Of a stretch of DNA of 44,583 nucleotides, positions 13,615 through 16,401 are shown piece by piece. This DNA comes from Promethearchaeia archaeon. Lineage in GTDB: Archaea; Asgardarchaeota; Lokiarchaeia; Sigyniarchaeales; SOKP01. The stretch spans positions 1 to 44,583 of the forward strand of contig JAWOCD010000072.1 of NCBI GenBank assembly GCA_046483985.1, written 5' to 3'. Made by a program: the position numbers and the translations under genes. Each line of letters begins with the position of its first letter. Within the stretch, counting starts at the first letter, position 1. The notes under the pieces are model-generated. The model made no database searches. It was given only the letters and a program-made list of their open reading frames with translations, and was not told the DNA's origin.

Positions 13615-14619
13615 TCAAAGGCTTTCTAACTCGGAAGGAATATATTCATAAGTGTCAAAAAACCGCTTTCTAATGTCATTTATTTGAAACTGCTGAGTTT
13701 GCGCCCCTTGGGTTTCTACTACAAATGACCCTATAATTGATCCTAATCGACAAGCATCGAGTAATGTCATGTTTAGAATAAGTCCTGATAAGATTCCCGC
13801 CCTATATCCGTCACCAGCTCCGGTTGTGTCTTGTATCGTGTCTGGCTTGCAGATGGGAATGGTAATTTCATATTTTTTTTCTTTCCCGTCTTTATAAATC
13901 AACTCTGAGCCCTCTTCTCCCTTCGTCATGATCACCGCTCTGACATGGTTTAGTAATTCATCTATGTTATAATCTGTTTTTTCCAAGATTTGGTTAATCT
14001 CATATTTATTCCCAATAACTATTTCCGATTTTTTAATTATATCCTTCAGAATCTCTTTTTTAAATACTGGAGTGACTTGCCCCGGATCAAAAATCATTGG
14101 AATTCCAAGTTCATACAACTGATTTGCAAAAATCTCCATTGCATCCGCTCCTTGAGAGGAATTGATCGCATAGATATAATTCTCCGGATTCTTTATTTTT
14201 GTGGAGAGATCAATATCCTTGCATTTTTCTAATGCCCCGCCGTGGAAAATAATCATTTGGTTTTTCTTCACATCGTTCACAATATAGCAAGCGGCGGTAA
14301 AATCATCTTTATAGATATCAACGTCTAAGTCTATATTATCGAATTTTTCGATATGCTTTTTATATCCAAGAGTATTGAAATCTTCTCCAACCGCACCTAA
14401 TACTGTTACATGACCCATTTGAAGTAATCCAAGATTATAGGCAATATTTCCGGCAGTCCCCCCGAAATGCTTGATTCGGCTGTTCGCAGTAATTGTACTT
14501 TGGTAATCCCCTTTATGAAAATCAATCGATACTGCATTTGTAAAATTTTCCTCAAATCCCATAATATAGTCGAAGGCCAAAGAACCTAGTATTAAGACTT
14601 TATCTCTATTTTGAATCAT
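13615..14619 (-). CDS. PfkB-family nucleoside (adenosine-type) kinase
   Basis: GSLAFD, FGGTAGNIAY, FDPGQ, N.YE, TKGEEGS, DTTGAGDGYRAG PfkB signatures. Neighbours are purine salvage genes. Confidence 0.88.
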   Translation of the reverse strand: MIQNRDKVLILGSLAFDYIMGFEENFTNAVSIDFHKGDYQSTITANSRIKHFGGTAGNIAYNLGLLQMGHVTVLGAVGEDFNTLGYKKHIEKFDNIDLDVDIYKDDFTAACYIVNDVKKNQMIIFHGGALEKCKDIDLSTKIKNPENYIYAINSSQGADAMEIFANQLYELGIPMIFDPGQVTPVFKKEILKDIIKKSEIVIGNKYEINQILEKTDYNIDELLNHVRAVIMTKGEEGSELIYKDGKEKKYEITIPICKPDTIQDTTGAGDGYRAGILSGLILNMTLLDACRLGSIIGSFVVETQGAQTQQFQINDIRKRFFDTYEYIPSELESL

Positions 14620-14760
14620 GGTAAAAGTAATTGTTTTAATTTATGTATTGCATGATAACTGATATATATCTAGACAAACTTGGACATTATTTAAATCTAT
14701 TTATTATCTGCATAACTTAGTGCGTTAAATTTCTCCGATTCTACATTTTTTTCATGTATT

Positions 14761-15001
14761 GCACAGGGATCGCAGCCCAAAGGCTCGGAAGCTGTTGGAA
14801 ATCCCTCTGATGATGGGATAAAACCAATAAGATCCGATGTTTGCGTTTTTTGCCAAGTTCAATCGGCTTGATGCCGATTTAAATATCCCCCGTAATGTTC
14901 CTGGAGCGTAACTGTGGACTTCTCATCCATAAATCATCGGTGCGTGCCAAGTACTGGTTACCACGTTCGTCAGGTAGTGATCTTCTGAGTATCTGTCGTG
15001 C
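14761..15001 (+). ncRNA. Candidate structured non-coding RNA of unknown family (strand tentative)
   Basis: About 47% GC versus about 24% in the upstream flank. Terminal, long-range and local stems (see findings). No convincing ORF. Followed by palindrome TCTATA-TG-TATAGA and T5. Confidence 0.5.
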
Positions 15002-15084
15002 TTGTCTCTATATGTATAGACTTTTTCTGACTCTTGGAAAGGAAATAATTATTGTTAAAATTATTAAATTCAGGTAGGAAAAAG

Positions 15085-16401
15085 TTAGATTTTATAACTT
15101 TCTCCGATTTCTGGAGCAACCGCCGTATACCTAAGATCTTCGGTTAGATCTTTAGCCAAGGTCGTCGCAGCTTTTGGATCTCCATGAATACAAAATACTT
15201 TTCTACTTTGATTTTGAAAAGAAAGATCCTCGATGAAAGTATGGAGTTTTGTTCCAGATGTATGACCGGAAAAATCATAATATTCTGTATCGCATTTCGC
15301 TTTAATCCTTACCGATGGAGCTCTTTTCTTTTTTTTTCCGTGTTGATAATATTCAAAAACCCCTTCATCCAGAAGTTTTCTGCCTGGTGTTCCTTCTACT
15401 TGGTAGCCCACTACATAAATTGCGGCGTTGGGATCTTTTACAAAAGACTTCACGAAATTAATTGATGGTCCTCCCTTAAGCATTCCACTGGGAGCAACAA
15501 TAACACCGTTAGTATTTTTAATCTTAGAGCGAGATCTCTTTGATACAAATTTGGCTCTTTTTACTGCTTGTTTAAGCTTTTTTCTGTCACGTAAATAATC
15601 CGGATTCCGTAGATAAATCTCTGAAACTTTCCTTGCGAGCCCATCCAAGTATAATTTTCCGCGATATCCATATTTTTGAAGAATCATCAAAACCTCTTGG
15701 GAACGAGCTACAGCGAAAGCGGGCACGAGTACTTTTCCCCCATTCTCTATTGTTTTGATAATATTTCCCACAAACTCTTTTTCTAATTGTTCCCGAGGAG
15801 GATGCTCTCGCAATGCATAGGTTGATTCTGTTATTACGGCATCTACCTCTGGAATTATATCTGAGTTGGCAGAACTAATTAAGTTTGTTTCATGAATGTT
15901 ATAATCGCCCGTGTACAAAATACGCTTACCGTCGACTTCAACCAAAATCATTACGCTCCCGGGAATATGCCCCGCATTATAAAGCGTAATATAGAAGTTT
16001 TGCCCGATTTTTTTTCTTATTTTATTATCCAAGAAATAACCGTTCCCCATCATTTTATTTACCTCTCCATAACCGAAAGGATAATAATAATCAGAGATTC
16101 GTATAGAATCCTTTATTAAAATCTTACTAATATCGAAGGTGATAGGATTGGTAAGTATAGGAACATCGTAGTTCATAGTAATGTATGGTAACGCTCCCGA
16201 ATGATCCACATGGCAATGACTCACCGCAACGGCCTTTAGTCCGCTGAGGTTTGTTTTAAGGGGTAATCTTTCTTCTCCATGAAATCGAATTCCATAATCT
16301 AATAAACATTTTTCTCCATTATTAGATTCAACAAGAACAGCAGAACGTCCGATTTCCCGACATGCTCCAAGAAATGTAATTTTAGTCATAAATAATTTCA
16401 A
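15085..16401 (-). CDS. Beta-CASP metallo-beta-lactamase ribonuclease (aCPSF2-like, no KH domains)
   Basis: FLGACREIGRS, LLDYG, SHCHVDHSG, AGHIPGS, YTGD, ESTY, PAFAVARSQE, GML.GG, GYQVEGTPGR, FSGH, IHGD. Probable start ATG 16389. Confidence 0.9.
   Translation of the reverse strand: MKLFMTKITFLGACREIGRSAVLVESNNGEKCLLDYGIRFHGEERLPLKTNLSGLKAVAVSHCHVDHSGALPYITMNYDVPILTNPITFDISKILIKDSIRISDYYYPFGYGEVNKMMGNGYFLDNKIRKKIGQNFYITLYNAGHIPGSVMILVEVDGKRILYTGDYNIHETNLISSANSDIIPEVDAVITESTYALREHPPREQLEKEFVGNIIKTIENGGKVLVPAFAVARSQEVLMILQKYGYRGKLYLDGLARKVSEIYLRNPDYLRDRKKLKQAVKRAKFVSKRSRSKIKNTNGVIVAPSGMLKGGPSINFVKSFVKDPNAAIYVVGYQVEGTPGRKLLDEGVFEYYQHGKKKKRAPSVRIKAKCDTEYYDFSGHTSGTKLHTFIEDLSFQNQSRKVFCIHGDPKAATTLAKDLTEDLRYTAVAPEIGESYKI

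Follow-up and report, generated by a model that had tools for sequence, protein, structure and literature searches.

Gene neighborhood and layout of the locus

The window, by which we mean the whole stretch of 44,583 nt analyzed here, contains a gap of 465 nt between a gene encoding a PfkB kinase (13615-14619, minus strand) and a gene encoding a beta-CASP/RMMBL nuclease (15085-16401, minus strand), for which a sequence-only reading had proposed a structured RNA at 14761-15026. Regarding base composition, the recount agrees with that reading (114/240, about 47%, against about 24% in the flank): the GC content is 47.5% (114/240) at 14761-15000, compared with 24.1% at 14620-14760, 25.9% at 15027-15084 and 35% across the window. 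The motifs listed earlier, including the CCGATG/CATCGG pairing and TGCCAAGT in two copies, were all detected at or near their reported positions, and the boundaries proved too narrow, the unit extending from approximately 14653 to 15034. The features of this unit, named for the parts of a transposable element to which they are assigned below, are as follows:

14653-14753, plus strand: left end (LE), with a motif that recurs at about ten places in the genome and aligns with the LE of the intact elements of genomes G018 and G015
14690-14696, plus strand: first TATA-like box, in the LE
14726-14731, plus strand: second TATA-like box, in the LE, its center 26 nt before the tnpA ATG
14754-14846, plus strand: putative tnpA 5' stub of 31 codons, reading MYCTGIAAQRLGSCWKSL, two stops, WDKTNKIRCLR
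14774-14785, plus strand: hairpin AGCC-CAAA-GGCT, within the tnpA stub codons
14793-14829, plus strand: two-tier stem, within the tnpA stub codons
about 14847-14863, plus strand: internal deletion junction, with most of tnpA and nearly all of tnpB gone
14861-14879, plus strand: perfect 7-bp hairpin AATCGGC-TTGAT-GCCGATT, within the tnpB codons for RLDADL
14864-14911, plus strand: putative tnpB 3' stub, the last 15 codons, reading RLDADLNIPRNVPGA and then a TAA stop, with the RuvC-III motif
14900-15034, plus strand: right-end module of about 120 nt, from the last tnpB codons to the transposon right end
14905-14946, plus strand: proximal three-tier stem, starting in the last tnpB codons
14905-14910/14941-14946, plus strand: helix S1, 5 of 6 pairs kept in the window
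14914-14917/14934-14937, plus strand: helix S2, 4 of 4 pairs kept
14922-14925/14930-14933, plus strand: helix H0, 2 of 4 pairs kept
14965-14982, plus strand: hairpin H1, GTTCG-TCAGGTAG-TGATC, with one mismatch and one G-U pair
14989-15017, plus strand: hairpin H2, arms 14989-15000 and 15006-15017, loop CTTGT, 9 of 11 pairs kept
15007-15026, plus strand: palindrome followed by T5, part of the right-end hairpin and terminus
15018-15034, plus strand: right-end terminus AGACTTTTTCTGACTCT, where all similarity between copies halts

The LE contains the outer motif ATAACTGATAT and a doubled GACA motif, CTAGACAAACTTGGACAT (14670-14687), which mirrors the right end, the left-end motif being an imperfect inverted copy of it. 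The T-run and CTGAC of the right end, which first looked like a terminator, are better explained by this comparison as the probable inverted counterpart of the A-rich LE motif (GACAAAC...) than as a dedicated terminator.

On the kinase side, the LE begins 34 nt upstream of the start codon of the kinase gene (ATG at 14619), and its outer part, with the minus-strand reading ATATATATCAGTTATC, occupies the stretch 37-52 nt ahead of this ATG; the kinase promoter may now be located partly within the element. Orthologues of the kinase were found in 22 of the 25 relatives searched, and an empty-site comparison made through them found that the kinase/beta-CASP adjacency is not conserved in the relatives. 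In two of these (L096 and L098, in G001 and G010) the kinase gene and a beta-CASP homologue are about 1.1 kb apart and divergently oriented, unlike the tandem order of the window, and in nine others no beta-CASP homologue was detected within about 1.5 kb of the kinase gene, so that the kinase neighborhood has been rearranged. A metagenome scan with the kinase-side flank gave no match.

Folding potential and comparison with RNA families

The minimum free energy (MFE) fold of the plus strand uses most of the pairings listed in the sequence-only reading and reaches -75 kcal/mol, compared with a mean of -69.4 for shuffled sequences (z = -1.14), with 33 of 200 shuffles folding equally well; the corresponding z values are -1.05 for the minus strand and 0.0 for the terminal 67 nt. 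The proposed structured RNA thus folds no better than shuffled sequence on either strand (z about -1.1). The Rfam search suggested with that proposal was carried out on the whole window with Rfam 15 at gathering thresholds and returned no matches, the models searched including RNase P, SRP, RAGATH-18, HEARO, purine and other riboswitches and C/D RNAs, while permissive filters applied to 14600-15120 gave noise only (E > 1.7). The GC rise and the many hairpins are inherited from coding sequence and from a putative RNA scaffold with repeated GTCC end motifs, the latter presumably being binding sites for TnpA.

A family of truncated copies in the genome

Comparison of positions 14740-15040 with the genome of origin (G000) gave many partial matches, and the copy number, which had been proposed as a check on the RNA, amounts to approximately 22 related pieces. 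These are relics of one IS607-family element, the number recovered being 16 by blastn together with nhmmer and 22 with a profile built on the 3' part. All 22 right ends share one sharp 3' boundary, ...ATGTCCAGATTTTTTCTGAC, with similarity between copies stopping at CTGAC(TG) and none beyond it, and the copies extend to variable distances on the 5' side (about 40, 80 or 170 nt). They adjoin unrelated genes in either orientation.

The LE motif, TAGACAAACTTGGACAT(T/A)ATTTAAAT (14671-14696 of the window), recurs about ten times in the genome and is paired with a right end at six loci, spanning approximately 80, 100, 320, 320, 357 and 382 bp. The 5' half of the window copy (14749-14852) is common only to the copies on contigs C71 and C60; similarity to these stops near 14852, and from about 14856-14862 onward the sequence resembles the 3' module found in the other copies. 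At this junction (14847-14863) about 2.9 kb, as found in the intact relatives described below, is missing. Internal breakpoints vary among the paired-end copies, which look like the products of independent deletions and not of the amplification of one miniature element. Inspection by eye of five paired-end copies revealed no target-site duplication.

Outside this genome, blastn of the region against 40 relatives gave chance-level matches only, a covariance model (R1) run on 100 genomes belonging to the same family detected one further relic, at an unrelated locus (G003:C65), and a metagenome scan with the 19-mer of H1 returned four chance matches on unrelated, mostly high-GC contigs.

Regarding the sequences beyond the right end, in 9 of 16 copies (those on C37, C119, C51, C101, C98, C60, C32, C115 and C53) the right end faces a co-oriented ORF, the stop-to-stop frames of these nine ORFs opening within about 16-280 nt and five of them within 35 nt. 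This could reflect chance, as half would be expected to be co-oriented, or else insertion that favors gene starts, or transcription directed outward from the element.

Gene remnants and intact relatives

Regarding the 5' half of the relic, the tnpA stub contains two in-frame TGA stops (14808-14813). In a tblastn search of the whole genome with the TnpA of the intact G018 element, which has MerR/HTH_17 and Resolvase (PF00239) domains, the stub on C71 was matched with 63% identity over 54 aa (E 9.5e-16) and the window stub with 58% identity over 31 aa, the latter being marginal when taken alone (E 0.001) and leaning for its identity on the longer sister copies. Intact TnpAs open with MYSIGIAAAILGVCVKTLRRWDKNKKIMCFR. 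On this homology, the window stub is best read as the head of an IS607-type serine recombinase with an N-terminal MerR-like HTH.

Regarding tnpB, the family consensus of the 170-nt module translates to RLDADLNAARNIARA followed by a stop, and the consensus reading is RLDADLNAARNI. A Pfam search with the stubs of the window gave no match, as they are too short, and the identity of the tnpB stub likewise leans on longer sister copies. The copy on C16 has a tnpB pseudogene of about 140 aa upstream, with IKFEDL (RuvC-II) and a zinc ribbon and ending in the RuvC-III motif, which matches PF07282 with E 1.3e-6 when read through one stop (0.001 for its last 45 aa) and intact TnpBs with E 2e-18 (tblastn). 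The stop-free 80 aa of this fragment had counterparts of 38-47% identity within open frames 730-870 aa long, from 13 further genomes of the order.

A palindrome of 6-7 bp in the RLDADL codons, (A)ATCGGC-TTGAY-GCCGAT(T), is kept in the window, C16, C37 and C119 copies. The LDSDLNA codons at the same place in intact relatives lack this palindrome, which may represent a 5' stem of the RNA module peculiar to the subfamily or have arisen by coincidence.

Loci with an intact tnpB, all in metagenome-assembled genomes (MAGs) of Promethearchaeota (Asgard) that belong to sister genera, are:

L084:2467-4824 (G018)
L083:438-2831 (G015)
L086:2221-4446 (G045)
L085:1615-4113 (G113)

The intact TnpBs have 742-832 aa (overall about 740-830), with the RuvC D/E/D motifs (GIDLGLKH, IKVEDL and LDSDLNA(A/S)RNI) and PF07282 at the C-terminus. 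By sequence, the last ~130 residues alone match PF07282 or solved TnpB/Cas12f structures, and the ~640 N-terminal residues are without a sequence match in Pfam or among solved structures. Directly upstream of tnpB, G015 and G018 have a co-oriented gene encoding a protein of 195-202 aa with MerR/HTH_17 and Resolvase domains, which by this architecture is an IS607-type serine-recombinase TnpA. Full-length matches to the TnpB in the genome collection searched were restricted to Promethearchaeota and a few Heimdallarchaeota MAGs.

The ends of the intact elements agree with those of the relics. The sequence ...ATGTCCAGATTTT(T/A)(A/G)GTAAC(T/G)G is located about 110-120 nt after the tnpB stop in intact relatives and ends the relic repeats too; the LE and right-end (RE) motifs are common to the relics and the intact elements of G015, G018, G045 and G003, and the layout from the last tnpB codons to the right end is the same in intact relatives. 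The distance from the LE motif to the tnpA ATG is also the same in the relics and in the intact elements of G015 and G018, all of which keep a TATA-like box about 26-33 nt before this ATG, and the LE is presumed to contain the tnpA promoter.

In G009 (contig C143; L088:1512-6398), a frame of 1628 aa ends in a TnpB-like module (PF07282, E 1.5e-8, with a weak match to PF01385) and is followed by a similar right end, a hairpin and then GTTTGTCCGGATTTTTAGGTACTG. By this resemblance, it would be a still larger fusion or read-through form of this TnpB family.

Regarding the nuclease and recombinase of the relics themselves, when three intact TnpBs and two TnpAs were compared by tblastn with the assembly (4.06 Mb, 97% complete, in 128 contigs), only stubs were detected, on C114, C71 and C16; an intact copy could have been left unassembled given the 128 contigs. 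Two other TnpB-like candidates of the genome were considered as the cognate nuclease and dropped: an abundant family of 409-aa TnpBs and a 751-aa TnpB-like ORF (G000:C33:17123-19378, minus strand), ending ...CKVCGEYVNRHANVARV. Neither has meaningful similarity to the TnpB of the relic family, BLAST similarity being absent for the 751-aa ORF, and the 3' ends of both are different. The family of 409-aa TnpBs, a second and unrelated one, is represented by at least 15 copies or fragments, most of them truncated, on C97, C96, C74, C116, C68, C4, C76, C41, C26, C27 and other contigs, the intact 409-aa frame being located on C97 (C-terminus ...CECGHKMDRDLNSAVNIMVKFLT...).

The right-end module

A structure of five helices (S1, S2, H0, H1 and H2) was written for the last 132 nt. 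The family consensus of H1 is GATCG-TCAGTCAG-CGATC, and both GTCC motifs of the right end, decayed in the window copy, lie in the 3' arm of H2. What the sequence-only reading had described as a 3' closing strand and a palindrome are the right-end hairpin H2 and the terminus.

Among 13 copies within G000, 85% of cells pair, compared with 23-46% with slid partners, while within-column shuffles match this pairing in 99 of 500 cases, and covariation is not above that of shuffles. The progenitor module was self-complementary, and the copies in G000 have not been kept so by selection. A cross-genome test, in which 11 right ends from other genomes were aligned to a second covariance model (R2), gave a different result: 86% of cells pair, compared with 71.5% in shuffles and 30-47% in slid controls, and 18 pairs have changes on both sides, a number reached by none of 500 shuffles, these covariation figures being optimistic since the alignment was fitted to the structure of the model and helices 1-3 are gappy. 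In the same alignment, 98% of the cells of H1 pair and 3 of its 5 pairs have changed on both sides. Between genomes the stem of H1 occurs as GATCG/CGATC, GACCT/AGGTC, GACTG/CAGTC and GACCG/CGGTC around a conserved loop of 8 nt, and these compensatory variants are seen independently of the model-fitted alignment; the inner stem of H2 also differs yet still pairs (TTTGTG/CACAAA in G045, ATGG/CCAT in G003). The covariation check proposed for the supposed RNA is therefore positive across the elements of other genera (the 18 pairs) and negative among the copies within G000.

IS607 elements are moved by a serine recombinase that acts on double-stranded DNA, so that an RNA is the best explanation for selection on base pairing in the right-end module. 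By analogy with known elements, the right-end module is probably the scaffold of a TnpB guide RNA (omegaRNA, also termed reRNA). At 77% identity to the family consensus, the window copy is the second most diverged of eight long copies, and it keeps 24 of 30 scaffold pairs (80%), where a rough neutral expectation at that divergence is about 21. With 80% of the scaffold pairs kept, a residual fold may persist in this copy. Its decay includes the mismatch in H1, the half-broken H0 and mutations in both GTCC motifs of the right end.

Origin of the relic and alternative explanations

Taken together, we assign a probability of roughly 0.93 to the reading that 14653-15034 (plus strand) is a relic of about 380 bp of an IS607-family insertion sequence, internally deleted and decayed by mutation. 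Against this reading stands that neither an empty site nor a target-site duplication turned up to prove insertion. An assignment to IS200/IS605 (Y1 TnpA, IS1341-like) was dropped in favor of IS607 after the serine-recombinase gene and its stub had been found. An IS607-type element, consisting of tnpA for the serine recombinase followed by tnpB for the RNA-guided nuclease, would have lost its internal genes, and the relic would retain the LE with the presumed tnpA promoter, 31 tnpA codons, 15 tnpB codons and the right-end module. In active elements of this kind, transcription of the module yields the TnpB guide-RNA scaffold, with the guide read from the DNA past the right end. Transcription of the relic from the tnpA promoter may persist, giving a functionless by-product of about 280 nt, and such a transcript would come near the boundaries of the RNA proposed earlier. 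The window copy is probably inert now; no cognate TnpA or TnpB is found in the assembly and it can therefore neither move nor arm a nuclease. Among the possibilities raised by the sequence-only reading, a non-autonomous element RNA was essentially right, the locus being best described as a gene-less IS607 deletion derivative with the segment for the probable TnpB guide-RNA scaffold still in place, and a decayed coding sequence, which the same reading had named as speaking against a new RNA, is what the tnpA and tnpB homology uncovered.

The nearest alternative, which we regard as unlikely, is that the relic gives rise to an RNA of about 280 nt, an orphan resembling an omegaRNA, either exapted as a regulator or used in trans by another TnpB, its guide being the adjoining flank, which enters the 3' end of the beta-CASP gene in antisense orientation. 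The TATA-like box, 26 nt ahead of the tnpA ATG and at a position kept in intact relatives, and the 24 of 30 retained scaffold pairs are compatible with such an RNA, and the genome offers many other TnpB genes and fragments; however, these TnpBs are unrelated and have different 3' ends, and the TnpB of the element's own family is absent from the assembly. Moreover, the copies in G000 lack compensatory evolution, the fold is no better than shuffled, and the differing breakpoints of the paired-end copies point to independent decay and not to selection. A free-standing, multi-branched housekeeping-type RNA of about 240 nt, comparable to RNase P or SRP RNA, would account for the local GC rise in an AT-rich genome and for the multi-branched MFE fold, but is far less probable still: half of the region is decayed tnpA/tnpB coding sequence, the sequence is multi-copy with variable truncations, one further relic only was detected among 100 genomes of the same family, and there is no Rfam match and a z of -1.1. 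The unannotated multi-branch RNA that had been proposed for this region thus dissolves into a 5' half of decayed tnpA and a perfect hairpin located in tnpB codons.

Two further readings have next to no weight in our assessment. The position of the element upstream of the kinase start (14619), with the LE 34 nt away, would suit a minus-strand cis-regulatory leader or riboswitch of the PfkB kinase, which had earlier been suggested to be purine-responsive, yet the other copies flank unrelated genes in either orientation, orthologues of the kinase occur in 22 of 25 relatives whereas the element was detected once in 100 genomes and elsewhere, no riboswitch family matches and the minus-strand z is -1.05. 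Just as negligible is a small protein gene, to which the ATG-initiated open frame of 60 codons at 14895-15077 (plus strand) might be assigned, as this 60-aa ORF crosses the right boundary of the element into unrelated flank and is not preserved in other copies.

Comparison with known mobile elements

The IS607-family relic in the window belongs to a known kind of element that has decayed in an ordinary way, and does not constitute a new class of RNA. Its intact relatives share with the IS607 family the gene order, with a TnpA of MerR-type HTH and resolvase domains followed by a co-oriented tnpB for a RuvC/zinc-ribbon protein; further likenesses are that the ends are imperfectly similar, that target duplication was not seen and that in the window stubs of both genes stand between the ends. 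Unlike IS607 elements proper, the window copy is gene-less and probably dead. The MITE-like IS200/IS605/IS607 elements and PATEs are gene-less miniature derivatives of TnpB transposons, which we take the window relic to resemble: like them, it has lost the protein genes while preserving the two ends and the RNA region at the right end. It differs from these in that the six paired-end copies in G000 have different breakpoints and that the window copy keeps stubs of both genes.

Regarding the nuclease, serine-recombinase-associated TnpB branches have been catalogued, some of them nearly exclusive to archaea (Altae-Tran et al., 2023; PMC10691335). The TnpBs of IS607 elements average 390 aa and have reRNAs derived from RAGATH-18, as in ISFba1 (PMC11061315), whereas the TnpB of the present family, at 742-832 aa, is about twice the usual size of ~390-400 aa. 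Regarding the RNA, the omegaRNA of ISDra2 is the guide RNA from the right end of its TnpB element (PMC8612924). The present module, a putative scaffold, shares with the guide RNAs of ISDra2 and ISFba1 its position, from the last tnpB codons to the right end, its multi-helix structure and its covariation among active elements, but it matches no Rfam model, RAGATH-18 included; the module in the window is moreover an orphan, its cognate nuclease not having been found in the assembly.

Thus, the supposed novel non-coding RNA is most probably transposon debris, for which annotation as an IS607-family relic is fitting, and a false lead is removed. From the relics and their intact counterparts, both ends and the right-end RNA module can be defined for an IS607 lineage apparently restricted to Asgard archaea, and any interest with regard to RNA-guided nucleases would lie in that lineage, with a TnpB of twice the usual size, and not in the locus of the window.
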